This document shows, piece after piece, positions 19,688 through 54,995 of a DNA stretch of 64,000 nucleotides (position 1 is its first letter; every line of letters begins with the position of its first letter). Location: the NCBI GenBank assembly GCA_973895155.1, contig OZ316894.1, forward strand, positions 9,585,440-9,649,439, given 5' to 3'. The notes under the pieces are model-generated. The model was not told the DNA's origin and searched no databases. It was given only the letters and a program-made list of their open reading frames with translations. The position numbers and the translations under genes are program-made. The stretch comes from Marsupella aquatica. Its lineage: Eukaryota > Plantae > Marchantiophyta.

Positions 19688-22000
19688 TTGCTATTGGGGA
19701 GGTTTTTCTTCGTCTTGTGTCTCGTACACTTTCATCGCAATATCGCTCTGCACTTTCGGATCATCTCTCTCCACATCAGTTTGCAGTGGACGTTCCTGGC
19801 TGTTGTGAGACAATTATTGGGGGTATTCGCGCGTGCTACCTTGGACCTCCACCCTGATTGGGTTTTCCTCCAGGTTGATGTCTCTAACGCTTTCAATACG
19901 GTTTCTCGGGCAGCCATTTTTCGTGCTTTGAGGGCGGCGGATCCAGACATCCAGTCCCTTATCCCCTTTGTCCGTTATTTTTATGGACTTGAGGCCCCGC
20001 TCTTCTATAGTCATCACACCTCTACTGGATTGTATACCACTCTTTCTTCTCCTGAAGGTACACTTCAAGGTGACCCTTTGGGTGGGCCTCTTTTTGCCAT
20101 TGCCTATTTTACAGCTTTACGGGAAGCTACCCCGGCCCACCCCCAGTGTATCTTCCCCTCCCTTTCATATGACACTCACATCATTGATCCCCCTGCCGCA
20201 GTTGCTTCTGCCCTTGCCACTCTTTCTACCCATTTGATGGGTCTCGGTTTACGGGTTCAGCCTATGAAGAGTCGTGCTTGGAGTCCAGTTGGGTTACCCT
20301 CTGATCTTGCGCTAGCTTCCCTGGGTTCTTAAGTCCAGCCGACGGTCTTCGGGTCCTTGGCTCCCCAATCGGTACCGCCTCCTTTTGCTCATCTCTCATC
20401 GTTGACGCTCTACAGGCGGCCTTAGCCCCTACTCCTATGCTCCCTAAGTTAGCAGATTCTTAGGCTGCATTTGGGATGTTGTTGAGGTGCGTCCACCCTC
20501 GTGCGTCTTATTTGACTAGGATGCATCCCCCTATCGAGGATCTTTGTCTCCACCTTCGAGCATTTGATGTCTCCATTCGAGAGACTATGGCCTCTCTTTT
20601 AGGGCCGGGTACATTGCTCTCATCTCAGTGGCTTCATCGACAGCTCAGTCTTCCTATTTCTCAGGGCGTGTTTGGGTTTACTCCCATTGAGCGCCTTGCA
20701 CCTTTGGCCTATTTGGGCGCGTGGGCGGCCGCCTTCTCATTGTTGGCAGATGGTTTCCTTATTGAGGACCGACCTTTTTTATTTTCATCTCTCACGGAGG
20801 TAGAGGAGGGTTCCCTCCCATTTCAGGTTCATTTGCGCGCAGCAAGGTCATCATTACCAGATCCCGTCCGAGCTGCGTTACCTTCATTTCAAGAGTTTTT
20901 ATCCTTGGACCCCGTCCATCTTCAGGCAGACCTTGTTGGGCATATGCACGCTTTCACCCTCTTCAGCATCCTCACTGAGGCACCTGACATGGACCAAGCT
21001 TGGATTCTTTCTTCCGAAGGAAAGGGCGCAGGAGGATGGCTTCAGGCCAATCCAGTTATTCCTCATCTTCGGATGTCTTCAGCAGAGTTCTCGACAGCCA
21101 TGCGTCTTCGTATGGGGCTGCCCCCACCCACTTCTTGTTGGTTTTACCTCCTTCTTGCACTTGTGGGAAGCCTTGTGATGCCACAGGTGTCCATCTTCTT
21201 TGGTACACTTTGGGCGGCGAAACCATTTTTGTTCACGATGATATGAGAGATGCGATTGCTCAGGTTCTCTCTAGCTCTTTGGTCAGCGTGCGGCGGGAGG
21301 TGGTGCTCGAGTTACCTGGTCCTCCATCACAGCGGTTGCAGGTGGATCTTACTATGGTCTGTGAGGGTCAATGTACTTTGGCTGATGTAGTAGTGGAAAA
21401 CCCATTGCGCCAAGACATCATTGGGACAGCGGCAACAACAGCAACGGCAGCGGCATCACGAGCGGCAACAACGAAGGAGGCCAAATATGTTGCCCGAGCT
21501 TCATGTGATAGCTTCCTCCCCCTTTCTCTTAAGATATTTAGGCATCTCCACCATCAATTCAACGGGCTTCTTCAAAAAGTTGCTCGGGATGTTCATGGTC
21601 GGATGGGTCCCACCGGACCCCCACTATTTGTTTTGACCACGCACTTTTGCCAACGCATTTGAGTCACCTTATAGCATGCTCAAGCTCGGGCCATCCATCG
21701 TTGATCTCTGACAATGGGTGCTAGTGTGCCTCCGCAGAGGCTAGCCCCCCTAGAGGACATTCCAGTCCCACTTGCTGATTTAGTTTCGACACTTGATGTG
21801 GACCATTAGCTATTAACCACATTAGCTAGGAATGATAAGGACCTTGGTCCATTTGCGGTCATTTTAGTTCCCCTTTCTTGGTTCTTAGAGGTTTCCTTTT
21901 GCTCACTTCTTTTGCATTTGGTTTTGCCCACTTGGGACCTCTTTTGTTTCTTCTTTTGTACTCTGTTTGGCCCTTTTCTGTAAAAAGTTTGTGTATATTT
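19688..22000 (+). mobile_element. 5'-truncated, inactivated non-LTR retrotransposon (RT plus CCHC plus restriction-like endonuclease; CRE-like)
   Basis: RT motifs AIGEVFLRLVSR, HQFAV..PG..E, DVSNAFNTVSR, GTLQGDPLGGPLF. C-terminal CTCGKPCDATGVHL and DLTM...DVVV...KEAKY...FLPL. Several in-frame stops and frameshifts. Possible TSD ACTTCAGT at 19680-19687 and 22001-22008. Confidence 0.85.
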
Positions 22001-38647: not shown

Positions 38648-39727
38648 CTATGTGCAGGCAGTGCCTGCAGCGATGGACTCCACATTCTTGGTCTGGAAGG
38701 CGAGGGCCTGGGCCTTCGCTGCCTCCGCAGAAACCAAAGCAGCATTGAACAGCGCAACGACCTTCATGTGGGAAATTTCGAACGCTCCTCGAATGTAAGA
38801 GTTGAGCAGGGAGGTTAACGCAGAGCTCAACAGCTCGTCGAAAGGATCAGTTCCATACTTCATCAATCCCTGCAATATTGTAGTTTGCCCGAACGTCTTC
38901 GTGGCCTGTTCCCCAAATGCATCTCCAACAGTCGACTCGACTGTGAAGAAACTTGGCCACATGTAAGTATGCTCGATCCAGTAGGCAGGACTGCACCCGG
39001 CTCCACCAGCCACAAAAGGCACTCCGGTGCTTGGGTAGGGCATCGTGGTAAATTGGCCAGATGTCCCTTGCTGAGGATACAGAGATTCCTGCTGAGAATA
39101 CTTAGACTGTGCGTAGTAACCTTGCTCGTATCTGTGAAGTAAATCGGTCTGCTGATTTGAGTCCTGATAAACCAAACTGTCGGTCGTAGTGGTGGGCTCC
39201 TGCGAAGCTCCAGCGTAAGTGGACTTCGGGTGATAGCCTTTCTTGTATCGACCTTTTACGGGATCAAACGTGAACTCGTCAGGCTGACTATCTGGCACTG
39301 GGTAATAACCATGCTCGTACCTGTGGGCCAAGTCATCCTGATCTGCATTTGTCTGCTCATCTGAGGTCTGAGAAACCAAACTGACTCCGTTCGTGGTCTT
39401 CTGCACACCTCCAGCATATTCAGAGTTCGGGAAATAGCCCAGCTTGTATCGACCTTCTTCGCGATCCATCGTGTACTCGTCGGGCTCATTATCTGGCTGG
39501 TTTCCAGTCGTATACTCCGTCTTCTCTGTGGTCGGGGTGGTAGTGGCATACTCTGGAGGGAGATGAGTGGTCGTCTCTGCAGGATCCTTCGAAGTGACGT
39601 TCAATTTGTCGTCGGTTTGATAGTATGAAGTCGCCGAAAACTTTTCGTGAGTTGTCGCTTCAGCCGTCAGAGCTGAATCTCCCAGGACGAAAACCATCAA
39701 CGCCAATGCAATCCACCTCCGACCCAT
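38648..39727 (-). CDS. Protodermal factor 1 (PDF1)-like secreted cell-wall protein
   Basis: Signal peptide MGRRWIALALMVFVLGDSALTAEA and a PDF1-type C-terminal domain (GCSPAYWIEH...WP...TVGDAFG...LLNSY...FNAALVSAEAAKAQALAFQTKN). Single exon with an internal Tyr-rich duplication. Confidence 0.8.
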   Translation of the reverse strand: MGRRWIALALMVFVLGDSALTAEATTHEKFSATSYYQTDDKLNVTSKDPAETTTHLPPEYATTTPTTEKTEYTTGNQPDNEPDEYTMDREEGRYKLGYFPNSEYAGGVQKTTNGVSLVSQTSDEQTNADQDDLAHRYEHGYYPVPDSQPDEFTFDPVKGRYKKGYHPKSTYAGASQEPTTTTDSLVYQDSNQQTDLLHRYEQGYYAQSKYSQQESLYPQQGTSGQFTTMPYPSTGVPFVAGGAGCSPAYWIEHTYMWPSFFTVESTVGDAFGEQATKTFGQTTILQGLMKYGTDPFDELLSSALTSLLNSYIRGAFEISHMKVVALFNAALVSAEAAKAQALAFQTKNVESIAAGTACT

Positions 39728-40118: not shown

Positions 40119-41507
40119 ATGGCGGAAGAACAGCGAAACGGAGGGGCGAGTCAAGGGCGTCACAACCATGGAGGAGTCCCACCAGTAAGCCTTTACGGGA
40201 AACGTAAGAAAGCACAAGGTATGAAGGTTACAATTTTGCATTCTCTTCCATTGAATGCTGTAACCACACTGCAGCTCAGAAAATCTACTGTTCTCGCCGT
40301 CTTGATCTGTCTATACGTCCTCCTCGTGCATGCTGCTCCCGCTCCCACGGGCGCTACAAGCACAAATGCCATAGTCTCAATTGACTCCCGACTTACATAC
40401 CTTCTACCCGCGGGATTCGTTGGCAACCTCACCCTGAATTTCATCGACACAGTGACCAGCGATGGCACCATCGCGGGATCGTTCTCAGCCGCGAAGAAGG
40501 CACCGTTCATCTCCTACGATCCCGAGTTTCTGCAGATAATCGGCGAAACTCCAAACTCGCCACAGCTCATCGCGCATAGAGACGAGCTCTTCGCCGACGA
40601 GGCAGGCGTTTGGGTCCCGGAAAAGAACCAGGTCTGGTTCACGAGTTTCACGGTGAATGACGCCAGCAATCTCTCGATCCTCGACCTCGGCACGTCGAAG
40701 ATCTTCAGGCCGAACACCAGCATTCCAGTCGTCACTCCAAATGGCGGATACTACTTCGAGGGCAAGGTTTACTTCACCGGCCAAGGCACCACCCCGGTGG
40801 AGCCCTGCATTTACGCCATCGACATCCACACCTATGAGACGACGATTGTCATCAATTCCTACTTCGGTCTCCGCTTCGGGGGTCCCAACGACGTGACCTG
40901 GGCCAGGAGGAAGAGTGGAGATGGTAAGAAGAGCTTCATGTTCTTCACTGATGAACCGGAATCGTATATCTACGCTGGTGGTCTGCCCCCGGTGCTCCCC
41001 AATGCCGTCTGGAGGTATGATCCGCAGGACGAGAGCATTGTCCCTGTCATAAGCCGAGCAGACATCCTCGCCCCGAACGGTGTGGCTGTGAATGCGGATA
41101 GCTCGAAGCTGTATGTGACCGATACGCCATTTGCTAACGTGTATTTGCCCGCCGACACGCCGAGCTCGGGATCCACGGCCATCTTCTCCTTCGACCTCGA
41201 CGACGATGGCTTCCCGGTGAACAAGCGAATGCTCGGGATATCGAGAAGTGGCATTCCAGATGGCATCAAGGTCGACGACGCAGGAAGGATATGGACTGGG
41301 GAGGGCGAAGGGATTGTGGTGCGGAATTCGAGAGGCAAGGTCCTCGGTGTCTTCAACTCCGAGTTCTTTCTGGAGAATTATCAGAATGAACCTGCCATAG
41401 CGAATTTCGCACTTGTCGATGACACGCTCGTTGTGCTGGCTATGCAGAGGGTCTGGACATTGAAGCTGGCCCAGAGGGTCGTTTCTCCTGATAGGTATCG
41501 AATGTGA
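40119..41507 (+). CDS. SMP-30/gluconolactonase/LRE-family beta-propeller hydrolase, probably secreted
   Basis: Motifs EAGVWVP, PNGG, GGPNDV, FFTD, PNGVAVNADSSKLYVTDT, IPDGIKVDDAGRIW and a hydrophobic N-terminal segment. Possible in-frame 90-bp intron 40184-40273; alternative ATG at 40221. Confidence 0.88.
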   Translation: MAEEQRNGGASQGRHNHGGVPPVSLYGKRKKAQGMKVTILHSLPLNAVTTLQLRKSTVLAVLICLYVLLVHAAPAPTGATSTNAIVSIDSRLTYLLPAGFVGNLTLNFIDTVTSDGTIAGSFSAAKKAPFISYDPEFLQIIGETPNSPQLIAHRDELFADEAGVWVPEKNQVWFTSFTVNDASNLSILDLGTSKIFRPNTSIPVVTPNGGYYFEGKVYFTGQGTTPVEPCIYAIDIHTYETTIVINSYFGLRFGGPNDVTWARRKSGDGKKSFMFFTDEPESYIYAGGLPPVLPNAVWRYDPQDESIVPVISRADILAPNGVAVNADSSKLYVTDTPFANVYLPADTPSSGSTAIFSFDLDDDGFPVNKRMLGISRSGIPDGIKVDDAGRIWTGEGEGIVVRNSRGKVLGVFNSEFFLENYQNEPAIANFALVDDTLVVLAMQRVWTLKLAQRVVSPDRYRM

Positions 41508-41544
41508 AGGGAGTTCTGATTTGAGGCGTACTAGAATGCCTGTG

Positions 41545-41920
41545 TTTGGAAGATGCATCAATGAATCGTGTTCGGGAGATTTATGTCCAACTTTTGTGGC
41601 AGCAGTCATGATGGACATTTGACCACTCATCCCTCGGTTCCCAACAGATACTTCAATCTGGTGGGTTTGCAAGATGAAATGCATCAATGAATTGTGTTCA
41701 GGAGATTAATGTCCAACTTTTATGGCAGCAGTCATGATGGACAGTTGACCTCCCAATCCCTCATTTCCAATCAGATACTTCAAATTGGTGTGTTTGCAAG
41801 TTAAGATGCATCAATGAATCGTGTTCGGAAGATTAATGTCCAACTTTTATGGCAGCAGCCGTTGATCTCCCAATCCCTCGTTTCCAATCAGATACTTCAA
41901 TTTGGTTGGTTTGCAAGTTC
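41545..41920. repeat. Three-copy ~130-bp tandem repeat downstream of the lactonase
   Basis: ATGCATCAATGAAT.GTGTTC...ATGTCCAACTTTT.TGGCAGCAG...CAGATACTTCAA...TTTGCAAG x3. Confidence 0.85.
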
Positions 41921-42719
41921 TGGGGCTCACAGAGGGAGGGACACAGGGTGCATTCTTCTGGATTTATTGGCACAGGAGGGACTGTCAAAAAGAGGCAGCA
42001 CCTCCTACTGTGGCTCAACTGATAAGACACATCAAAATTTGAGCCTTGACTAGTTGCCAAGAAAGGAAATCATGTGCCAAATCACCGCTTGTAAGGTGAA
42101 TAATGTCTACCAACAAGCGGCATCCATGCAATTTTCGGTATCGGATTGTTGCCATGTAAGGCTATCATTTGCCAAATCAACACTTGAAAGGCCAATCAAA
42201 TGGCGTCCATGCAAACTCCTGTATCTATGTGTTGCCTGTCAAGGAACTCGATCAGACACCAAGTGGCCCCTCGTCTGGTGCATGATGTCTATTATCAGGT
42301 TGGCGTCAGTCCTCTGTATCCACAGTGCCCACGTACAGATTGAGTTTCATCGAAGGGATGATTGGAATTTTCAGCTATACCGCATACTGGAATGATGAAC
42401 TCTTCTGTCTAAAGTGAACGTCCAGACATCCCTCTTTACATAAACAATGTACAGTGAGATCTGGGTGCGAGGAGCAGAAAATTTGAAACCGCTGATCTCG
42501 TCCATACAGGATACCAAATGGTAGAATGCTCGGATTCCACCGGATGTATGATGACCACAGGCTGGCGTACAGTATCCACGGATCCCACGGCAGTAAGAGC
42601 CGTGGACTACCCTGAATGCCCGGTTTAATCTGACGGGCACCTTGACGCCTTGTCGGGCACGTCAAATCGTCAAATGACGGCCCGAAAACACGCAATTTGA
42701 CGTATATTCCTGAAGATTC

Positions 42720-43320
42720 TCCCGAACGAACCCCGACTTCCCCGGACCTTTCGCGAACACCTCCCGAGCACCCCGGACCTGAACCCGAACTCCCCCTGAC
42801 CCGAACCCGGACTCCCGGGCCCTTCCCGGACCCTCCCCGGACCCTCCCGGGCCTTTCCCGAAACCTCGCCGGACCCTCCCCCGAACACTCCCCGGACTCT
42901 CGGGCCTTTCCCGGACCCTCCCCGGACCCCCACCCGAACCCTCCCCGGACCCCCACCCGAACCCTGCCCGGACCCTTCCGGGGCCGGCCGGGGTAAAGGT
43001 GGCCCGGGGGACGGGATTCGGGGAACCGGGGACGGGGGGCATTCGGGGAAGAGGATTCGGGGAACCGGGGAAGGGGGGGCGGGAAAGGGGGGCCGGGATT
43101 CGGGGATTTGGGGAACGGGGTTCGGGGAACGGGGTTTGGGGAACGAGGTAGGGGGTTCGGGGAACGGGGTTTGGGGAACGAGGTAGGGGGTTCGGGGAAG
43201 GGGGTTCGGGTAGGGGGTTCGGGGATGCGGGGAACGGGGTTCGGGGAACGGGGTGCGGGGTTCGGGGAACGGGGTGCGGGGTTCGGGGACGGGGCTCGGG
43301 AATTGGTGGCCGGGGAAGAG
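42720..43320. repeat. Left subterminal GC-rich repeat field
   Basis: C-rich CCCG(A/G)ACC units (42720-42975) switch to G-rich GGGGTTCGGGGAAC units (42980-43320). Confidence 0.85.
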
Positions 43321-43529
43321 TTAGAGGCGGGATTAGGGTTAGGGGCGCGAGATTAGGGTTAAGGGAGGCGCAATTAGGGTTAGGATCAAAGATTAAGAGT
43401 TTTAAGAGAGGATAAGAAGTAGATGATTTAGTATAAGTAGGAATAACTAATTCATTTCACTAATCCAAAGTCTCATTGTGTTTCTCTCTCTTGTGGTTTA
43501 GCATTAGGGAGAGATCGGAGGGATACATT

Positions 43530-43885
43530 GGAACTCTTGTACGCGCATGCTTTGAGCTCGGCTCGGTCTGCGATAATTCGTACGAGAAGTTCCTTATATC
43601 GCCTTAACAACTTTGCATCATTGTTTTGTTTGAAAGTGAACTACTTGCGAGTAAAGAGATACCCATGTGCATATGCTTAGAGCTTTGGCTCGGTCTATGA
43701 CATTTCATATGGGTATCACGATTTCTCATACATATGTTCACTTCAAAGATAAACTATTGTGAAGTTATAGATATTACATAACATAGGTTGAAGTAGGGAT
43801 GTTGACAAATATAAGAATTTGGGAAACTTTCCTGCGCATGCTTTGAGCTTAGGCCCAGTCTGCGATAATTCAGGAAAGTAACCCA
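43530..43885 (+). promoter_or_regulatory. Three tandem conserved stem-loops upstream of the transposase ATG
   Basis: Core CGCATGCTTTGAGC-loop-GCTCGGTCTGCGATA inside different closing stems at 43530-43593, 43658-43717 and 43820-43885, with compensatory substitutions. Confidence 0.75.
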
Positions 43886-43960
43886 TTGTACTATATTTGT
43901 TATATTCACAAAATCAAAAGAATCAACCCTTTTATTTTTTTACCATTGAGAGTCGTAACA

Positions 43961-46863
43961 ATGTCCGATGAAGAGGATTCGCATGAAACTGGATATCATT
44001 CCACTACTCCCAGGCCTGGTCCAACTCGTGTGCAAGAACACCCTTCAAAACAATCTCCAGTGTGGAGATATTTTGAACGATGTGATGCGCCTTCAACATG
44101 TCATGATGTCAATCGTATCTATCGAAGATGCAAGTATTGTTTAACATACGTTACTCATCATGCAACACGAGCAAAGGCGCATTTGATGGGAAACATCCAA
44201 AAAGGGGATGCGCCCCCTTGCATGCAACTCTATGGTGTCGTCGATTTGGATGCCATCAACATTATGTACAATGTGATAAAGGTTCCACCGACCTTAAACT
44301 ACAAACGACGAGATGGAAGTCATATCTTGCGGGATGTGAGAGGTCGTAGGCCAAGCGTTGGAAGTTCATATTCGCAAGCATCCACACGAGGGTCAAACTA
44401 TGTTGACATGGATGATACACATGTAAGGGAAGGAGATAGGCCAGTAAATCTTCCTAACCCAATTATGGATGCCTATCAAATTCCAAATAGAACAAATTTG
44501 GATAAGCTTTGGGCGAAAGCTTTCTACACCAATGGTATTCCATTCAATGTTTCAAATAATCCTTTTTTTCGAGAAGCAGTCATAGAGACTTCAAAAGGGA
44601 TTGTCAATGGTTATTCTCTACCTACGATGCGAAGTTTGCGATTGAAATTATTGGAAGACAGTAAGGAGGATCTCACAAAGGACATGACGCAAACTTTAAA
44701 GGAGGCAAAACCTTATGGGTATTCTCTTTCTTCAGATGGATGGGAAAACGTCCGAAGAGAACCTTTGATGAATGTCATGTTGTTGACTTCTAAAGGTGAC
44801 TTCTTCTTGGATAGTTGGAATGCTGCGCAAGCTGACAAGAAAGATGGGAAATATCTTGGCGACATGTGGTTGAAATACATTGAGGATATTGGTGCAGATC
44901 ATATTATTCAAATTGTAACTGATGGAGCACCCGCAAATCGCGTAGCAGGTTGTGAGGTAGTCATGAAAAAGTATCCTCATGTCACTTGGAGCTGGTGTGC
45001 TGCCCACGTGTTTAATTTGCTGCTAGAGGATATGTGTGGTCACAAGCGTGTAGTGGTAGATGATGTTGGACAGAATCCATTCCAAAAGATTTTTAAACGG
45101 TTGAGGTGGATAGTAAAAGCAGTTTCATCATCGCAAAAGCTTTCTGCAATATTTGCAAGAAAATCTCCTGACAAAAAACTGTTGAATCCAAATGCAACTA
45201 GATTTGCGACCAATTTCCTAATGGCACAAAGAGCGTTGGAGCTAAGAGGAGCTTTACAACAGATGGTCATTGATGATAATTGGCAGTCTTATCGTGATAG
45301 ACTTCCATTGCGACCAAAATCAGCTGGACACATGACGAGGGGAAAGGCAGACGAACTTAAAATGTGGATACAGCAAGATACATTTTGGGTTGAAGTGAAG
45401 GATACAGTTAAATTCTTTACTCTGTTGGTCAAGATGTTGCGAGAATTTGATGGTGATTCTCCGCAATCAGGTTGGTTGTATTGGAGTTTGAAAAGAGGGA
45501 TTGATGTTTTGAAAGCAAGCATGGAGGATTGTCCATTGGTAACAGAGGTATTGAAACCGAAGATACTAAAAGTGTATTTGGATCGAAAAAAATCTCTTAC
45601 CACTGATTTCATGCTAGCGGCAGCATATCTCAATCCCCAAATGTTTTTTGATGAGGACATAGATGTCGCTGGAGATCCAGAACTCTACAGGGTTTCAGTG
45701 AATACATTGCTAGATATTCAGAACAACAGGTGAAGGAGGGGATCAACCATGATCGCGACGTCAGAGAACTTATTTCTGCCATCCACAGTCAAGCCATTGA
45801 CGCCCAAAAAAAAAATCCCAACACATCAATAGCGATGGGAGCCGCCCAATCAAGTATAGGTAATGTCAGTCCAGCAGAGTGGTGGCATGCGTATGGTGCA
45901 GATTATAAACATTTGAGAATCCTGGCGCGAAGAATCTTACACCAAAAAGTGTGCGCATCAGCTTGCGAGCGAAACTGGAGTTCGTATGGATTTATACATT
46001 CCAAAAGTCGCAATCGATTGACAAATGATCGAGCAAAAGATTTGGTGTTTGTATTTACAAACATGAGGGTAGAGAAAGGGCTCACAAATGTTCGAAACCC
46101 GCATACGTTTATATATGAACGTTATGACCAAAGAAGAAGAACAAATGATGGACCTAGACCTATCTCCATGGAGTTGTGCAGCAATGAAGAGTACGATGCA
46201 ACACGTGCGGCTCTTGGTGAAGAAGATGTCGAAGATTATGATACAATTGATGATGCTGATGAATTGCTACACGGATTTTCACTGGATAAGGATAGTGAGT
46301 TCTTGACTCGTATTCCACCAGATACAGACATCACTGCTGCAGAGGAATGGGAGAATGAAATGGATTTGGAGATGTATCCTACAATTGATGAATCGCAAAT
46401 CCAAGACGAGGAAGATGCATCACTGGACAGAAACTTTGTGATGCCTTCCCAACCAAGGTCACCTTGGTCGAACTTTGCGAATGATGTTGACACAAGCAGA
46501 CCATATTTCAACGAGCAACGCACAGGCACAGCAGGGCATCCGACGAATGGAAGGACATCAACCTTTTTTCATGGATACAATCATGAAGGTCAAACTTCAA
46601 ACGACCCACATGCAAACTGGCAACACCATGCAGGTCCACCCTTGAATGCGTATGCAGGGCCAAGTGTCATGAATCCATATACGTCGAACAGGCCTATTGG
46701 CCTTGGTGGGTTTCGAGGAATATCATCATTTCAAGAAACATCGCACAATGTTCAGTCACACAATCGTGATCCACTCAGTTGGGGCGACAAACAAGACGAG
46801 TGGAATGCGCTTTTGTGCAAAAATCTTAACAACAATGCACGAAATTTCTCTTCACAGCCTTGA
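43961..46863 (+). CDS. hAT transposase (BED zinc finger, DUF659-type RNase H core, hAT dimerisation domain), one frameshift
   Basis: BED finger (SPVWRYF..CKYC..KAHL), catalytic D (SDGW), D (VTDGA), CAAH, TRFAT, then WW..YG and CERNWS (E). An apparent 1-bp deletion near 45683-45690 splits it into ORFs 43886-45733 and 45730-46863. Confidence 0.92.
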
Positions 46864-47104
46864 AGCATCTTTTCATTAGGATAATATCAAGTGTTGCTAC
46901 TCTTATATTGTCGTATCTGACATAGACAAAATTATAAACAATTATATTTTTTGTAACATGATTGTATTGTCTTGCAGTGTGTTTATTATTGTACAATGAT
47001 TGAATAATTTATTTGTATTTGCATTTGAGAATGCCATAGAGACACACCAACGCAACATGTTTTCCAAATCTCCAACACTGACTATTTCAAAGTACCTTGT
47101 TGTT

Positions 47105-48430
47105 GGCCATAGCAGCCGTAGTCCATACTAGCCCCCTCCATTAATTGGTTAGTTCATTTCACTATGCGAAGATTTAGTCCAGCAATAGAGCACCGTCATA
47201 TTCAATAATAATGAGGTCGAGAGGACCTCATTATTGGACCTGAGAATGTCATTGCTTGAATAAACCTTCTCGTAATAAAATAAACTTAGTTGAACTTGAA
47301 GTTGTAATGAGGGCCCATTTTTGGGGTGGGTGAATGTCGTTGACCGTAGCAGCTGCACTACTTGAAGTTGGGCAGAGTTTATATGACTATGAGAGAAGTT
47401 GTGAAATGAACACATCGCCTACATAATCAGTAACCTTCTCATAATCATATAAACCCCGTTCAACTTGAAGTTGTAATGAGGGCCCATTGGTGGCCAAGGA
47501 GAGCAATGTCATGATGATGATCAGACACGGTCACGGGGATTCCGCAAGATCGGTCACCAAATTGATATGCAGACGCAAAATACAATCACCAATTTCAAGT
47601 CAAAGTTCACCCGTTTATATCCTCTCCTGTCCGAATTCCAATTCGAGCTTGGACACCCTCTCGTCAGCAGGTCTCCACCCTTTCAGTTGCTCCTCACGCG
47701 AACCTCTGGATTCCTCAAACACTATGAATGATGCATTGAAATAAAATAGGTTCGAGGATTCTAGAGACTGCTATCTTGGTTTGCGTGAAGAGCAACTGCA
47801 ATGGTGGAGACCAGCTGACGAGAGGATGTCCAAGCTCGAATTGGAATTCAGAAAGGAGAGGATATAAACATGCAATTGTGCGAATTAATGTCATAGGCCG
47901 TAGTAGCCGTACTCCAGTAATTGGTCAGTTCATTTCATTATCAGAAGATTTATTCAAGCAACGGAGCACGAACATATTCAATAATAACAAAGTCAGGAGG
48001 ACCTGAAATATTGACCTGAGAGTGCCATTGCTTGAATAAACCTTCTCATAATGAAAAAAACTCTGTTCAACTTCAAGTTCTAATCAGGGCCCATTTTTGG
48101 GGTAGGCAAATGTAGAGGCGTTGGCCTCGGTTTGCATGCGCATGAATGTCATTGGTCGTAGCAGCTACGCTACTTGAAGTTGAACAGAGTTTATTTGAGT
48201 ACGAGAGAAGTTGTGAAACCAACGGATCGATGACATACTCAGTAATTTTTTGCTCGAAGGACCTGAAAATTTGACCTGAGAGTGCATTTGCTTTCAGAAC
48301 TTCTCTCGTACTCAAATAAACTCCGTTCAACTTCAAGTTGTAATGAGGGCCCATTTTTGCGGTGGGCAAAGGAGTAGGCGTTGGCCTCGGTTCGCATGTG
48401 CATGAATGTCATTGGCCGTAGCAGCAATAG
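47105..48430. ncRNA. Cluster of five pre-miRNA-like foldbacks (putative small-RNA precursor array)
   Basis: Arm pairs 47151-47186/47251-47286, 47360-47400/47432-47471, 47613-47704/47778-47869, 47927-47961/48028-48062 and 48172-48222/48288-48338. Four units share a scaffold ending ...AACTT(G/C)AAGTT.TAAT.AGGGCCCATT. Expression is not demonstrated. Confidence 0.65.
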
Positions 48431-48930
48431 CGGAAAAAATTATGAAAGACAGGAAAAGTGAGTGGACTTAGGTATACATCCTTCTACAAAATCATTCTCA
48501 ACTTGGGCGGCTAAAACCATTGCGATGTTGACTTTGTTGAACTCATTGTGCTACACGATCTCCTTTTGGAAATGATTTCAGAGAAGGATCAGTACCTGAG
48601 TCCACTGTGCTACCGTCTCTCATCACGTCTATTTTCCTCATACTTGTCCAAAAATATGATTGTGAGCCCGACAATATGCTTCCAAAACCTATGGCTGATT
48701 GGAGGATGGAATATTCTTACGAAAATACACATTCTCCAAAAGGCGACGCCATGCCCCCAATGAAAAATATATGTACTCATCGAGATATGCAATGTAATGT
48801 CACTCCAAAATCTCTTTACCAATTACAAGTTGAAAATAATTGTCAAAGAGGATATGCCGCTTCTATTTTAACAAAATGTCTCTAATAGTAACTACATGAA
48901 AATAACATCAAAATGTAGAGACTATTGGTT

Positions 48931-50928
48931 TTAGTTCCTTTTGTTGTTATTGTCAACAGCTTCTGTTTTCACCTCTGCCTGTTGTTGACGTCGTCGATGG
49001 CGCTGAATGGATCGTTGCAAATTTTGCTCATCTATTGATGGCTGGTTGGCTGCCGCATATTGTTTCCACTCATCGAGTCGACCACTGAATAACAACCTGT
49101 CAAATTCCCCATCTGACAAATTATATTCATTGATTGTGAAATGTTCAATGGGAGTTTCATCTATTTGCATCGCCGGTATAGTATCTTCAGTCATATCTTC
49201 AGTGTTTTGTTGAGTCTCCATTGATGGCATTTGCTTCAACAATCCTCGTTGCTCATACTCGCGTTCATGAAATGGTGTGCGACACCAACATTTTCGGCTT
49301 TTCTTCAACCATTTAGACAAGCAAGCATGATGCCATATATGACCGCAGGTTCCCAACATGGAAACAGATTCAGGGCCCCAAGGATATAGGCACCAAGTAC
49401 ACTTGTCATCCTTTTCACGAACAAATGCTGCCATAGTTTCATCATTTTTCCACTTATCAAAAAACCTATCAATACCTTCCGCGTCAACCTCCACATCTGG
49501 AAAAAGGTTGCTGTGCCCTGTAGGATCTATGATTTGCATGTTAACAAAATTTGGCGGCGATAATTCACCTTGCCCTTTGTTTGACCTCATCCCCAAAGCA
49601 CCATTGTTAAATTCTTGCACCTCTTCGTGAAGATTTGATATGATGATTGCTTGCATTGCAAGTTCACTTTTAAGATCATTAATGATCTTGTCCTTCTCCT
49701 CAAGTCGTGCCAGTTCATTGCATTGACGCTCTTTTTCAGCAAGTTGTTTTGTCAGCTTATTGATTTCTTCCATCTTGTCAAACAATTGACACTTGTACAA
49801 CATCACTTCCGAATTGGTCGTCGGCTCGTTCTGCTTCTTCTCAAGTGATCTCATCTTTATATCAGCTTGTTGCAATTGTGACTTGAACTTTTCGATGCTG
49901 CCACATTCACATAGCTCCACTACATACTTCGTGCGGAGATTTGTCTCAATCACCTCTGCAACATCTGCCCCCAAGCTCTTGCATATGTTGTGCAGGTTGA
50001 ACTTATCCTTGTTAGCATCAGTAACATTGTTGTTCTTTGCATGTGGAGTTCTACTCCCAACACCTACAAGGATTGGTTTTTTGGTGTGCGTTGACTCCAC
50101 ATTGGTTGGTGGTGCTGCACGGTCAGGCATGGAGACTCGAGGAAGTACAGCCGCTTTCCCCTTCTCATGCGCATATCCCTCCCCAGTGTCATCTAGCTTT
50201 CTTTTGGATCCCTTGTTGGAAGTCTCCATTGAAGGGTCCTTTGCAATAGTTGTATTCCTATTCGTTGCAATCGCAACCACTGATGGATGCACCTGATGAG
50301 TCAGCTTGCCAGCACTGTTTTCCCAACGGTAATCCACCTTCCACTTGAGAATGAATTCAGCAATCAGACATCGGATAAAAGGAGGGTAAACGGAACTCAT
50401 TTTCGTTTGGGCTTTGTGTGGAGCAAACTCTCGATATCGTTGCTGCCAATGTGATTTAACACCTGCATGTGTTACTTTGGACATGGTGAATTTTTCTTGC
50501 GCCCATGATCTTGTTGCCCAAAGATCCGGATCGTGAAAAACTTGTTGTGCTAATGGCCAAAAGTCTTTCTTTGGCATCAACATCTCCAATTCCTTTGCAT
50601 TCATGGCCCATTCGTCATGGGGAGGATTTACATTGGGCGTTAATATACTCCATTCATCCTTCATACCCTCATCTTCCCATCTTCTTGTGTTTGGCGTCGG
50701 TGTTCCATCAACCTTGGGTTTAGCCTCATAGTGAATGCCAATGGTTGTAAGATTATCCAACACATTATTACGAAGAGCTTCATCGTCACAATAGGATCCT
50801 TGACCATCTTGCATGGTAAGATGTTGTGTTGTGAACTCTTTGTCTTCATCATCAGAAGACAATTCCCATCGTCCCATGTTTGCGATGTGTACAAAAGGTC
50901 TGCGATATTTGACAATGTACAAACACAT
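48931..50928 (-). CDS. Transposon cargo: coiled-coil plus RING-H2 protein (putative E3 ubiquitin ligase)
   Basis: Uninterrupted 665-aa ORF (second ATG at 50877), heptad-rich middle region, and CTWC-x14-CGHIWHHAC-x10-CWC ligand pattern. Confidence 0.82.
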   Translation of the reverse strand: MCLYIVKYRRPFVHIANMGRWELSSDDEDKEFTTQHLTMQDGQGSYCDDEALRNNVLDNLTTIGIHYEAKPKVDGTPTPNTRRWEDEGMKDEWSILTPNVNPPHDEWAMNAKELEMLMPKKDFWPLAQQVFHDPDLWATRSWAQEKFTMSKVTHAGVKSHWQQRYREFAPHKAQTKMSSVYPPFIRCLIAEFILKWKVDYRWENSAGKLTHQVHPSVVAIATNRNTTIAKDPSMETSNKGSKRKLDDTGEGYAHEKGKAAVLPRVSMPDRAAPPTNVESTHTKKPILVGVGSRTPHAKNNNVTDANKDKFNLHNICKSLGADVAEVIETNLRTKYVVELCECGSIEKFKSQLQQADIKMRSLEKKQNEPTTNSEVMLYKCQLFDKMEEINKLTKQLAEKERQCNELARLEEKDKIINDLKSELAMQAIIISNLHEEVQEFNNGALGMRSNKGQGELSPPNFVNMQIIDPTGHSNLFPDVEVDAEGIDRFFDKWKNDETMAAFVREKDDKCTWCLYPWGPESVSMLGTCGHIWHHACLSKWLKKSRKCWCRTPFHEREYEQRGLLKQMPSMETQQNTEDMTEDTIPAMQIDETPIEHFTINEYNLSDGEFDRLLFSGRLDEWKQYAAANQPSIDEQNLQRSIQRHRRRQQQAEVKTEAVDNNNKRN

Positions 50929-51064
50929 TTAGCACAATTTTGGGCATTCACGACAAAGTTTGATAGAATATTATCAACAAAATGCAGAACATTGTAATTG
51001 ACATACAATGAATAAACATATAATCGTTAAGGTGACCTTTACAAAATTGTGTAAACCCTAATCT

Positions 51065-52720
51065 CTAATCTCTAAGATATGGACTGTTGTGCAAATGCAA
51101 TGTGCAATCTGGAAACGTTCGAACTATCTTCAAACTCCAAAAAGCACAATCCATTCTTTTCTTGGCATCCGTGGCCATCATTTCACGGATTATGATATCC
51201 AATTTGGGGCCATGCACTTGTGCACTCCAACCCCTCCCCAAAAACCGTGAACCCTTAGACATTCCATCCCAATTCTCTGTCAACAATGTCTCAAAAATAT
51301 TCCCCAAAGCATATATATCGGTACTTTCACTAAACTCGACAGGGGTAGGTTGAACAAGCTCCGGAGCCAACTGTGGAAATTGTTTTTGGTATGTTGCTGC
51401 TTTTTCTGTTGCTGTGGGCCACATCCGATTAGCTGGTAATTTGCACTGTGATTTATGCTTAGACAAGCCAAAATCACATAAACCAACATACACCTTAATA
51501 GCCACATCGTGCTCGTGATCGAAATGAAGAAGGATGTTTCCAAAGTGAAGATCACAATGAAATCGATCATGCTCATGCAAGTATTGCAGTGTCTCCAGCA
51601 AAGCCAAGGCGATTCCCAACCGGTTCTCCAACAAGAGTTTCTTCTCCGAAATAAACTTGAAATCAAGGTCCGTCGTGATCTGTGCCTTCCCCTTGCTCTT
51701 TGACGATATGCCGCACTTATCAATAAAGCTACCCAAGTCACCTCCATTATAGTGATCGTAAATAAGTTTTGGCGGATCCTCAATAGTCAACGCAAGAGCT
51801 CCAACGATTCCCTTATGATTCAGTCCTCCCATAAGCACTTCTTGTAATGCGTCAGTTCGTCTCTTATGCTTGTCTCCATCCTTGAACCGCTTTGCGACTA
51901 AGGTCACGTTGACGGGAATGAGAGGACAATGTAATATACGACAAGTGTATACCTCTCCTTGGATTCCTTTCCCAATGCGACGTGTGTTGTGCACCTGCTC
52001 AGGTTTAAGAAAATGGATACTCCTAACCTCTGGAACTACACGCGATGGACGTGTTCCTTTTCGAGCACTTTTGATGCTGACATCCCCAAAGTGCACAATC
52101 TCGTTAGCATATTTGACATTGCTATCAGATTTTGCCATTGCCAACTCCTTACTCCACTTCACTAGCAATTCTCTCTTGTGTGTGTACATCCCGGGGTTTC
52201 CAAGCAATGTAGTGTCACCCTCTTCCACTTTGGCTGCCAAATTATCCCAAACATGCTTCTCCAAGTTGAGTGCCAAATTTTCCAGAAATCCTCCCGGTTT
52301 CTCAGTTTCATCTTCAAATGACTTCATTTGCTCTCGTGTGAAATTGTCTTCCTTTTGTACACTTTCCCGCATACAACGGGTTATCTCACCAAGAAAGTTT
52401 TTGTATCCTTTCTCTCCGTGTCTTGTGAACTCCCTCTCGAACCCGTCCACCCCATACTGTTTCGGTTGAGTGTAGCGATAAAGTATCTCTTTCCATATCG
52501 ACACTACCACATTGTGTCGAACTTGTTTTGCCTCTTCGTTTGCCCCCTTCCGTTTTCGTTTCCCGGCCACTTTGCTAGAATTCCTAGCATGTTCGAGAGT
52601 GTTTCGAGCGTTCTTCAATGCATCCAGAGCAACAAGATTCGGCTCATATCCCTCATTCACATGTTTTGTGATCATCTCCAACACTTGCCTATACTCTAAA
52701 CTAAAATTTTCGATGACCAT
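51065..52720 (-). CDS. Transposon cargo: protein kinase (TKL-like, non-RD) with N-terminal helical extension
   Basis: Uninterrupted 551-aa ORF with GKGIQG loop, VAK lysine, alphaC Glu, HCDLHFGNIL, DFG, APE and DIYALG. Basic KRKRK patch near the N-terminus. Confidence 0.9.
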   Translation of the reverse strand: MVIENFSLEYRQVLEMITKHVNEGYEPNLVALDALKNARNTLEHARNSSKVAGKRKRKGANEEAKQVRHNVVVSIWKEILYRYTQPKQYGVDGFEREFTRHGEKGYKNFLGEITRCMRESVQKEDNFTREQMKSFEDETEKPGGFLENLALNLEKHVWDNLAAKVEEGDTTLLGNPGMYTHKRELLVKWSKELAMAKSDSNVKYANEIVHFGDVSIKSARKGTRPSRVVPEVRSIHFLKPEQVHNTRRIGKGIQGEVYTCRILHCPLIPVNVTLVAKRFKDGDKHKRRTDALQEVLMGGLNHKGIVGALALTIEDPPKLIYDHYNGGDLGSFIDKCGISSKSKGKAQITTDLDFKFISEKKLLLENRLGIALALLETLQYLHEHDRFHCDLHFGNILLHFDHEHDVAIKVYVGLCDFGLSKHKSQCKLPANRMWPTATEKAATYQKQFPQLAPELVQPTPVEFSESTDIYALGNIFETLLTENWDGMSKGSRFLGRGWSAQVHGPKLDIIIREMMATDAKKRMDCAFWSLKIVRTFPDCTLHLHNSPYLRD

Positions 52721-52933
52721 GTTTTCCCTTCACAAAAGGAATATGTGAGGGAGGAACAAGATCTTACCGGGATTTAAATAAAATCCTTCCAATAAGGATT
52801 CAACGACCAACCTGAAAATTACAAGTCGTATTGTTATTATCTTTTCCCGGTTTATTTCTCCCATGCATTATGTATTTTTATTGCACACATGATTTTAATT
52901 ACCTTTCTATATACAACAATAAAAGAGAAAGAC

Positions 52934-53283
52934 AACACTTGTGAAATATCGCAGACCGAGTGGACGCTCAAAGCATGCGCACAAAAGTGTTCTTTTCTTT
53001 CAAAGTTGTTATATTCCTGCTTCGACATATGTGATTTGGTGTCTATAACTTAACACTCATTTGTATTTCAAGTAAAAACATTCTCGGCGAATCGTGGTAT
53101 CCATGCAAAGTATCGCAGACCGAGCCGAAACTCTAAGCATGCGTACATGGATTCCTCTATCTCCGCAAATGTTTTACTTAATGAACAAAGGAGACTAAAT
53201 TGTTAAGGTGATATTAAGAAATTCTTGTACGGAGTATCGCAAACCGAACCGAGGCTCAAAGCGTGCGCGTACAAGTGTTTCTT
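52934..53283 (-). promoter_or_regulatory. Three tandem conserved stem-loops upstream of the kinase ATG
   Basis: Reverse-complement copies of the same core at 52934-52991, 53096-53155 and 53216-53283, each with its own closing stem. Confidence 0.75.
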
Positions 53284-53411
53284 TATATCCCTCCATTTGG
53301 CTCTAAGGTTAAGGTTTAAAACACAAAAAAAACTTAAAAAATCACAAAACAAAACACAAACAAATAAAAACAAACCAAAAATCAAAAATAAAAACCAAAA
53401 CCAAACACTTA

Positions 53412-54115
53412 CCTCCTCCTCCTCCTCTTCTCTTCCTCCTCCTCCTCCTCTCCTCCTCCTCCTCCTCTCCTCTCCTCTCCTCCTCCTCTTCCTCCTCTCC
53501 TCCTCTCCTCCTTTCTGCAAAACCAAAAATGAGGAGGGAGAGGAGGGATCTCCTCCTTTTATCCTCTCCCGAGCCCCCGACCCTTTCCCGGCCGGCCCCA
53601 TCCTCCAACCCTAAATCGCGAAACCCTAATTCTTCGAGCCTCAATCCCGAACCCCGAACTTCCAAACCCCGAACCGGACCCCGAACCCCGAACCGGACCC
53701 CGAACCCCGATCCCCACCCGGACCCACCCCGGCCTCCCGGACCCGAACCCCACCCGGACCCCACCCCGAACCCCCACCGAGCGCCTCCGCCCCGGGCCCG
53801 GACCCCACCCGAACCCCCCGTACCTCCCGAACCCGAACCCCTCGGACCCGGACCCGAACCCCACCCGGAACCCCACCCGAACCCCCCGCACCTCCTCCTC
53901 CCGGACCCGAGCCGCACCCGGACCCCACCCCGAACCCCCACCGAGCGGACCCGAACCCCACCCGGACCCCACCCCGAGCCCCCACCGAGCGCCTCCGCCC
54001 CGGACCCGGACCCGATTAGTCACCCGGACCCCCACCCGAACCTCCTCCCGAACCTCCTCCCGAACCCGAACCCCGAACCGGACGTTTCCTTTCCCGGACT
54101 GCTTCCGAACCCGGG
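53412..54115. repeat. Right subterminal repeats: (CCT)n tract and C-rich CCCG(A/G)ACCCC units
   Basis: CCT/CT microsatellite at 53412-53510, then dense CCCGAACCCC / CCCGGACCCC repeats at 53570-54115. Confidence 0.85.
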
Positions 54116-54826
54116 TGCCGGGTTGTCAATTTGCCGCTCTCAAACGCCCAGTTTGACGGGCAAGGTCAAACCGGGCCTGAATGCGTGATCTGCACCTCAT
54201 AAAGGAGAAGGATCATATAAAACATCCATTGTTTGTAAATAGAAGCCTCTCAAGAAATAACAGGCTTGTGTGGGCGAAAAGGAGAGCAAGTTATAGCAGA
54301 GAGACAAGGGATAGATGTATGCTGTGGAAATCCTATTGATTCCAATGAGCATCGGAGAAATTGTTCTCTGTATGCACGGAGTAGAAGTTTTGAGCCACAG
54401 CACTGAGGAACACCAAACTGTGAGGCACATGCTGTCGAATCTGAATAAACGCATTTAACAAAGTGCAGAATATACTGTAGCTTTGTAACGGCAAAGGAAG
54501 GGTTCAGAAGGAAAGTCATACAAATGTGAGTACTAAAGCCTTAAATTTTGGCAAAAGGAGAGCAATGGAGAGCTTTCAATGACGTGTCAAACAGTGTGCG
54601 ATCTACGCTTTCTGCAAATATATTCAATTGTTAAAAACTCCACTCATGCACTTTAGTGTTGGAAGCTTGGTTACACTATCAGGTGAAATACCTCACATGC
54701 ATCAGTCAGCTAGTGAGTCTACAGTAGTTTTAATGATTGTAGTACCGTAGAATAGTTGGAGACCATATCATGGAATTTCTTCTAATTTATGGATACAAGT
54801 TTGCTGCGAAAGTGGAGCACAAGATT

Positions 54827-54995
54827 TTGGCAGAGTGAGATGGCGTACGAAGGAACTTTGTTGAGTCGTGCTGGGCAAACTCTTGGCAGAGTGAGATGGC
54901 GTACAAAGGAACTTTGTTGAGTCGTGCTTGGCAAACTCTTGGCAGATTGAGATGGCTTACATAGGAACTTTGTTGAGTCGTCCTGGGCAAACTCC
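54827..54995. repeat. Three-copy ~56-bp tandem repeat
   Basis: TTGGCAGA.TGAGATGGC.TAC..AGGAACTTTGTTGAGTCGT.CT.GGCAAACTC x3. Confidence 0.85.

Follow-up and report, generated by a model that had tools for sequence, protein, structure and literature searches.

We describe a hAT transposon in the liverwort Marsupella aquatica that carries a non-RD protein kinase, a RING-H2 protein and a cluster of predicted hairpins between well-defined ends, and that very probably holds them as selected, element-level cargo. The element spans positions 42619-54175 (11,557 bp) of a 64,000-nucleotide stretch (hereafter the window, whose numbering is used throughout) of contig OZ316894.1 from assembly GCA_973895155.1, positions 9,585,440 to 9,649,439 of the forward strand. 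A sequence-only reading of the window had proposed that this cargo is an integrated and selected part of the transposon rather than a set of Pack-type gene fragments. That proposal stands. The most telling clue, which was not available to the reading, is a hairpin in the leader that shows covariation and accompanies the kinase onto another type of transposon.

The ends, previously assigned from a target-site duplication (TSD) of 8 bp and inverted termini, are sharply defined. The direct repeat CCTGAATG occurs at 42611-42618 and again at 54176-54183 (no strand assigned), in each case directly outside a terminal inverted repeat (TIR). The TIRs themselves are perfect over 8 bp, with CCCGGTTT at 42619-42626 on the plus strand and its reverse complement at 54168-54175 on the minus strand, and the match between the element ends is limited to these 8 bp. 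Each 16-mer formed by a TSD and the adjoining end occurs once in the window. A 9-bp TSD was considered and dropped, as it would leave the termini asymmetric. Inside the TIRs lie GC-rich subterminal repeats (no strand assigned), comprising CCCG[GA]ACC motifs and a telo-box-like TTAGGGTT cluster on the left (42680-43390) and further repeats with telo-boxes on the right (53600-54110). In total, CCCG[GA]ACC has 49 matches within the element vs 0 in the remaining 52 kb of the window. Telo-box-like TTAGGGTT motifs at 43330-43390, 51053-51062 and 53607-53630 are found 5' of all three genes in the sense direction, and the one upstream of the RING gene suggests that this gene may have a short promoter of its own.

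The plus strand encodes a DUF659-type hAT transposase (43961-46863), with Pfam matches above cut-off to DUF659 (E = 1.8e-30) and the C-terminal dimerisation domain Dimer_Tnp_hAT (E = 5e-11). The DDE motif residues are present as D259, D321, a CxxH at 346-349 and an E within the CERNWS motif of a second frame. Together, the TSD, the short TIRs with their subterminal arrays and the transposase place the element in the hAT superfamily, with atypical terminal bases, as its termini start with CCCGG and not with the (T/C)A of Ac/Tam3-type elements. An 8-bp TSD is the usual size for hATs (PMC12730594), and DUF659 elements with 8-bp TSDs have been described as members of this superfamily (PMC6710886).

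The sequence-only reading correctly placed the transposase on the plus strand, facing kinase and RING genes that are both single intact frames on the minus strand, but it missed a frameshift near 45690. The first transposase frame is 590 aa long and stops at 45733, while the dimerisation domain and the catalytic-E motif are in a different frame; this copy thus lacks the unbroken frame expected of an autonomous hAT. In sequencing run X1, contigs totalling 278 of 291 depth units carry an extra base at 45689/45690, and contigs with this base are present in runs X3 and X5 too. Either the transposase of this copy is broken, or the assembly slipped at a short run of Gs. In most copies the frame is kept there. 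An intron as the source of the break was ruled out, given the lack of a suitable splice pair and the extra base in other copies.

We examined the wider family by aligning contigs from four of the seven listed sequencing runs to positions 41500-53330. In X1, a 9.8-kb left-flank contig covered 41500-42645 with 0 differences at a depth of 15.8 and broke off 27 bases within the element, the pattern expected when many flanks lead into a single end. Contigs over the transposase leader (43270-44089), the transposase end and hairpins (46232-47832), the hairpins to near the RING stop (48028-48876) and the kinase start and leader (52324-53311) had depths of 243, 214, 229 and 184, respectively. Each of the four differs from this copy at 1-4 positions and is 12-15 times as deep as the flank, and the cargo contigs equal those of the transposase side in depth. 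This suggests approximately 12-15 nearly identical copies, cargo included, an estimate from contig depth, which is not a strict copy number and from which the summed depths of X3 were excluded. X1 may itself be the source of the window. Because near-identical leader, hairpin, RING-end and kinase contigs are 12-15 times deeper than the flank, the cargo is likely part of a young multicopy family. More distant relatives of the transposase and RING (83-86% identical, depth 16-19) were also found in X1, while X5, which is labelled as another organism, contains unlinked fragments, about 80-98% identical, of the leader, transposase, RING and kinase. Near-identical 151-base pieces of low depth in X6 were set aside as likely carry-over.

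The kinase gene (51065-52720, minus strand) is one open, intronless frame encoding a 551-aa non-RD protein kinase (Pkinase, E = 1e-15), with a G250 loop, K277, E294, HCD390xxxxN395, DFG416, APE452, a helical N-terminal domain and a basic KRKRK motif. Relatives of 540-636 aa share 47-70% identity over their full length, including the N-terminal domain, and keep the catalytic residues. A profile search against 1.84 billion proteins gave 19 matches at E ≤ 1e-30 and 65 at E ≤ 1e-10; past the family's own fragments, the next proteins were divergent non-RD kinases at about 1e-23. Twenty matches were looked up and included nine Calypogeia fissa proteins on eight scaffolds and one Riccia fluitans protein, C. 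fissa providing the closest named relatives of both kinase and RING, in dispersed positions. In a quick, midpoint-rooted tree of 74 kinase domains, from which 26 further 'other' rows and all short fragments were left out, our kinase was one of 41 domains, the majority of them HCD/HND, that grouped separately from most HRD kinases (SH-aLRT 98). Among the matches, P0050-P0161 make up a broad non-RD (HCD/HND, D[FW]G) kinase group with helical N-terminal regions, possibly a large transposon-borne group of bryophytes.

A PDB sequence search with the kinase returned generic kinases only (E about 1e-8), and the predicted structures of the cargo proteins were poor (mean pLDDT 51 and 38). Structure comparison using Foldseek and VIA-align found no usable match (best Z 6.4, generic helices), nor did an Atlas search for the kinase or the RING N-terminal domain. 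Viral and prokaryotic collections returned no kinase locus and no leader pattern, although one such search counted a single relative without yielding its locus.

The second cargo gene (48931-50877, minus strand), also a single open and intronless frame, encodes a 648-aa protein with a conserved N-terminal domain, a predicted coiled coil (long helices at residues 304-424, moderate pLDDT) and, at residues 493-532, a RING-H2 variant of the form C-x2-C...C-x-H-x2-H-x2-C...C-x-C. The zf-RING_2 match (E = 7e-6) is slightly below the Pfam cut-off. The conserved start is at 50877 instead of the first ATG at 50928. One full-length relative is 59% identical, and in the stretches that relatives cover the eight zinc ligands are all retained, the last pair being an unusual C-x-C. 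Going by this domain, the protein is presumably an E3 ligase. The kinase and the RING protein each form a compact family. One C. fissa scaffold bears fragments of both the RING (P0194) and the kinase (P0025), but at 46.8 Mb it is too large for linkage to be claimed.

The matching structured leaders noticed earlier on both sides of the element were confirmed. The transposase leader (43497-43960, plus strand) and the kinase leader (52721-53412, minus strand), compared over about 420 bases each, share 72% identity over 413 aligned bases, with a score of 314 vs a best of 39 among 100 shuffles. Each contains three copies of a motif, located at 43524-43599, 43650-43726 and 43815-43891 before the transposase and at 53211-53287, 53087-53163 and 52923-52999 before the kinase. 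The predicted fold consists of an outer stem, a 6-nt 3' bulge, an inner stem, a UU bulge and a short terminal hairpin. Eight copies fold alike in the sense direction, with pairing in 87% of cells, and both sides have changed in 12 of 22 pairs, compared with 3-5 pairs in slid controls and a count that 0 of 500 shuffles reach; the structure was derived from folds of the same, related sequences, which biases these covariation figures upward. The many G-U pairs point to the sense strand. Using a covariance model, we found the motif solely in the two leaders and in a metagenome locus described below (L001), with none elsewhere in the window, and Rfam contained no match to it.

Both leaders have predicted features of spliced 5' untranslated regions (UTRs). 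In the kinase leader, a good donor and acceptor predict a 5' UTR intron (53412-53303) immediately before the first hairpin, while a candidate 3' splice site lies at 43501 in the transposase leader, and each leader contains 8-11 upstream ATGs. The right subterminal repeats directly adjoin the kinase leader. A 14-nt stretch immediately upstream of the start of the RING gene (50897-50910, minus strand) is complementary to copy 3 of the kinase-leader hairpin, a length equalled in 3 of 2000 shuffles.

A single metagenome scan returned two loci, L001 and L002, the latter short and with an internal stop. The L001 kinase is 47% identical to ours and is preceded by the same leader (66% identity over 494 bases), in which the motif copies are spaced by 123/164, compared with 124/164 before our kinase and about 126/165 before the transposase. 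Behind this kinase, in the same orientation, lies a DUF6729 gene that has D, D, DxxH and E motifs and that BLAST does not relate to our transposase. The Dada superfamily has a DDE transposase with DxxH and inserts in small-RNA genes with a 6-7-bp TSD (PMC3706591). The DDE/DxxH motifs of the L001 neighbour fit the transposase part of this description, a comparison made by motifs, with the contig ends outside view. This DUF6729 gene (L001 2527-5521) occupies two frames with a plausible short intron, making the locus a candidate kinase-carrying Dada-like element. Since this leader, with its spacing preserved, also stands before a 47%-identical kinase whose neighbour is an unrelated DUF6729 transposase, the kinase and leader likely move between transposon types as a module, as TET/JBP genes do in fungi, at least as judged from this one contig. 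Dedicated enzyme cargo is then found across superfamilies, on a hAT here and beside a DUF6729 DDE-like gene at the single L001 locus.

These loci also bear on the possibility of a toxin-antidote or drive system, in which the kinase, the RING or hairpin RNA would poison spores or gametes without the element while another part would protect carriers. The anatomy is compatible with this idea, since an enzyme pair and hairpins are combined in a selfish element of what is likely a haploid-dominant plant. However, the L001 kinase has no RING in view, a Pfam search matched neither protein to a toxin family, and about 12-15 dispersed copies suit transposition better than single-locus drive. Nothing observed supports this suggestion of the sequence-only reading directly, and we consider such a system very unlikely.

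Comparison of our kinase with those of L001 and L002, run as pS/pN, gave a pS of 0.70-0.72 (near saturation) and a pN of 0.26-0.34. Among the 40 of 2,519 differences listed, 7 of 9 in the cargo genes were synonymous (p about 0.001 vs 25%), as were 7 of 13 in the first transposase frame. On these figures, purifying selection acts on the kinase. Intact enzymes under purifying selection would also be found if the element carried a payload of benefit to its host, with the non-RD kinase and RING E3 aiding plant defence or stress signalling and host selection keeping the element in place, and non-RD kinases are linked to plant immunity. Yet the relatives are dispersed and mostly fragmentary, or adjoin a transposase as in L001, and the leader common to kinase and transposase suggests that the kinase is controlled together with transposition. 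A host-beneficial payload is, in our judgement, improbable.

Passive Pack-type capture or nested insertion would instead make the cargo recent host sequence, or a second element, inside a plain hAT. Gene capture by a DUF659 hAT is documented for histone H3 in Pseudocercospora (PMC6710886), and the transposase of this copy is broken. In contrast to host gene fragments, the cargo genes are full-length, intronless frames conserved end to end at 47-70% identity, and no close host donor was found among the matches of two large protein searches, outside which the whole genome of the host lay. Moreover, the leaders of the kinase and the transposase are paralogues, the former merging into the right subterminal repeats, and depth is even across the element. 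Passive capture is largely refuted, with next to no probability left to it, and the earlier claim of integrated cargo is upheld by cargo as deep as the transposase side, residues kept among relatives and a marked excess of synonymous over non-synonymous differences.

The foldback array between the genes, also seen in the sequence-only reading, resolved into five hairpins on the minus strand (47135-48345): H1 (47135-47305), H2 (47352-47476), H3 (47608-47872), H4 (47915-48085) and H5 (48165-48345), with z from -3.5 to -22.8 vs 60 shuffles each. H1, H2, H4 and H5 are one paralogous family with matched changes on both arms (5 double-change pairs in the 20-pair main stem), while H3 has 92-nt arms and a dG of about -175. 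On the minus strand, where they lie downstream of the RING, all five fold a little more stably than on the plus strand. As stable imperfect stem-loops they resemble miR820, and 'small-RNA-like' is a fair description of these predicted folds. A coding origin was rejected: 1 of 50 reading-frame pieces had a weak Pfam match (E 0.047, below cut-off), and none matched any of 196 proteins. A search for hairpin targets in the window and the two loci gave 27 scattered matches in the window, the best with plant-style scores of 3.5-4.5 and none above background; no site within the element pointed to self-targeting above background. The region had no Rfam match at the gathering score, with sub-threshold miRNA matches only.

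The sequence-only reading also suggested that the cargo may manipulate host silencing. Such hairpins could serve general anti-silencing, acting as miRNA-like RNAs against host silencing genes while the RING and kinase degrade or inhibit silencing proteins and the leader hairpins are ordinary expression elements. The paralogous stems with arm-matched changes and the long arms of H3 are consistent with this, and precedents are provided by miR820 (PMC3459959) and by VANC and KIU (PMC13317346). The low and scattered target scores, the lack of an Rfam match at gathering score and the lack of a significant Pfam match in the 50 reading-frame pieces argue against it, leaving general anti-silencing a possible but rather doubtful account.

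The reading we prefer, tentatively and at somewhat less than an even chance, is leader-specific self-activation of the element's genes. Two converging transcription units would start in the GC-rich subterminal regions, and the leader hairpins would sit in spliced 5' UTRs rich in upstream ATGs, blocking expression until relieved. A protein of the element, the kinase being the likeliest candidate, would bind transcripts with leader hairpins or act on them, and so permit expression despite host silencing. Counter-defence would be added by the RING, working as an E3 ligase produced from the kinase unit, and by small RNAs from the central hairpins directed at host or rival-element transcripts. Because the leader precedes the kinase in both backbones and has been duplicated onto the hAT transposase, its reader would control the transposition genes, and we favour the kinase as that reader because it is the only protein seen with the leader in both backbones. 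Relief of leader-blocked expression is known from TAR/Tat and from the cauliflower mosaic virus leader and TAV, which we offer as analogies. A more ambitious form of this proposal is a portable Tat/TAR-like switch of liverwort DNA transposons, in which the non-RD kinase reads the triple leader hairpin and licenses its own transcripts, the hAT lineage having put its transposase under the switch and acquired, for use against host defences, the E3 ligase and a cluster of small-RNA hairpins; we regard this as speculative and rather unlikely as a whole.

Several points weigh against self-activation through the leader. The element is known here from its DNA sequence. The covariation counts come from eight related leader copies, the N-terminal domain of the kinase has no recognised fold, and RNA binding by the kinase is our supposition. 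The link across superfamilies comes from L001, a single 5.8-kb contig with the ends outside it, which has no visible RING and no 14-nt antisense stretch (best match 10 nt), so the module does not always include the RING and central hairpins. Most of the C. fissa relatives found are fragments, P0172 (547 aa) being the sole full-length one. No single contig covers the whole element, and gene order in the other copies was deduced from even depth and pairwise bridges. Finally, CpG/CHG depletion in the element is like that of the host background, so a lasting escape from methylation is not evident.

Elsewhere in the window, Pfam identified an RCC reductase, leucine-rich repeat genes and a proteasome ATPase exon, which mark the host as a land plant. 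A single 462-aa frame with an SMP-30/gluconolactonase domain and a GC content of 0.55 lies 1.1 kb from the insertion (40119-41507, minus strand); our impression is of an intronless gene, microbial in style, that may have been acquired horizontally. The neighbouring 359-aa frame (38648-39727, minus strand) encodes a protein that is predicted to be secreted, contains internal repeats and matches no Pfam family above cut-off; we take its C-terminal region to resemble protodermal-factor-type proteins. Two overlapping frames at 20476-21662 (plus strand) have no Pfam support and resemble the decayed 3' part of a non-LTR retrotransposon. To the right of the element, at a distance of 0.6 kb, a 56-bp unit is repeated three times in tandem (54820-54994), the copies being 87-92% alike.

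Worked plant examples of transposon anti-silencing are few (VANC and miR820), and this element offers a compact, young and testable case from an early-diverging land-plant lineage. It brings together, within defined ends, a hairpin cluster, an RNA motif that shows covariation and is absent from Rfam, and two enzymes whose families are uncharacterised. The link between leader and kinase, if true, would mean that a cut-and-paste transposon has a transactivation switch like those of viruses, and might provide an orthogonal expression tool. Our findings also suggest that many bryophyte kinases and RING proteins annotated as 'lineage-specific' are transposon genes.

The plant hATs Ac, Tam3 and Tag1 are 3-5 kb long and encode a transposase only, and their TIRs usually begin with TA or CA. 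Our element shares with them the 8-bp TSD, a short TIR, subterminal arrays and a DDE transposase with CxxH and a dimerisation domain; in contrast, it is 11.6 kb long with cargo, and its termini are CCCGG. In a literature search whose scope left out subscription journals and Repbase Reports, we found no plant hAT described with a kinase, a RING and a structured leader.

The closest architecture is that of fungal IS3EU and hAT7 elements with accessory enzymes. IS3EU, with an alpha-kinase, and hAT7 are fungal DNA transposons carrying TET/JBP accessory genes (PMC12730594). As in these elements, our cargo consists of dedicated accessory enzymes, with the kinase opposite the transposase and a second cargo gene between them, and it likely crosses superfamilies. 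Unlike them, our element is from a land plant, and in place of an alpha-kinase and TET/JBP proteins it encodes a conventional-fold non-RD kinase (Pkinase/PK_Tyr_Ser-Thr) and a RING-H2 protein. The structured leader and hairpin cluster have no counterpart in the portion of the IS3EU/hAT7 description available to us (PMC12730594).

Other systems share parts of this arrangement. VANDAL elements with VANC, and KIU, are Arabidopsis Mutator elements, and VANC recognises DNA motifs and causes hypomethylation (PMC13317346). Our element differs in its hAT backbone, in a motif that covaries as a single-strand hairpin and in its proteins, as Pfam finds only a kinase and a RING in the cargo and no VANC-type protein. 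Thus, it is neither Pack-type nor VANDAL, although it may work like VANDAL, a likeness of operation only, as the six leader copies, absent from the rest of the window, form element-specific noncoding motif arrays. The miR820 of a rice CACTA element is one miRNA with a proven target and acts against OsDRM2 (PMC3459959); both cases have a hairpin precursor within a DNA transposon, while ours has five hairpins of two families, known from sequence alone.

Among hATs with cargo, the Pseudocercospora fijiensis DUF659 element of about 10 kb carries histone H3 copies, an 8-bp TSD and a 20-bp TIR, and its cargo is RIP-inactivated (PMC6710886). The two are alike in DUF659, TSD, a size of around 10 kb and the presence of cargo, whereas the cargo described here is conserved and no donor was found. 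ToxhAT is likewise a large hAT (14 kb) with protein cargo, ToxA being a fungal virulence payload that benefits the host fungus (PMC12506042). The contribution of this locus is a young, near-intact family whose ends are defined, together with the covarying leader hairpin.

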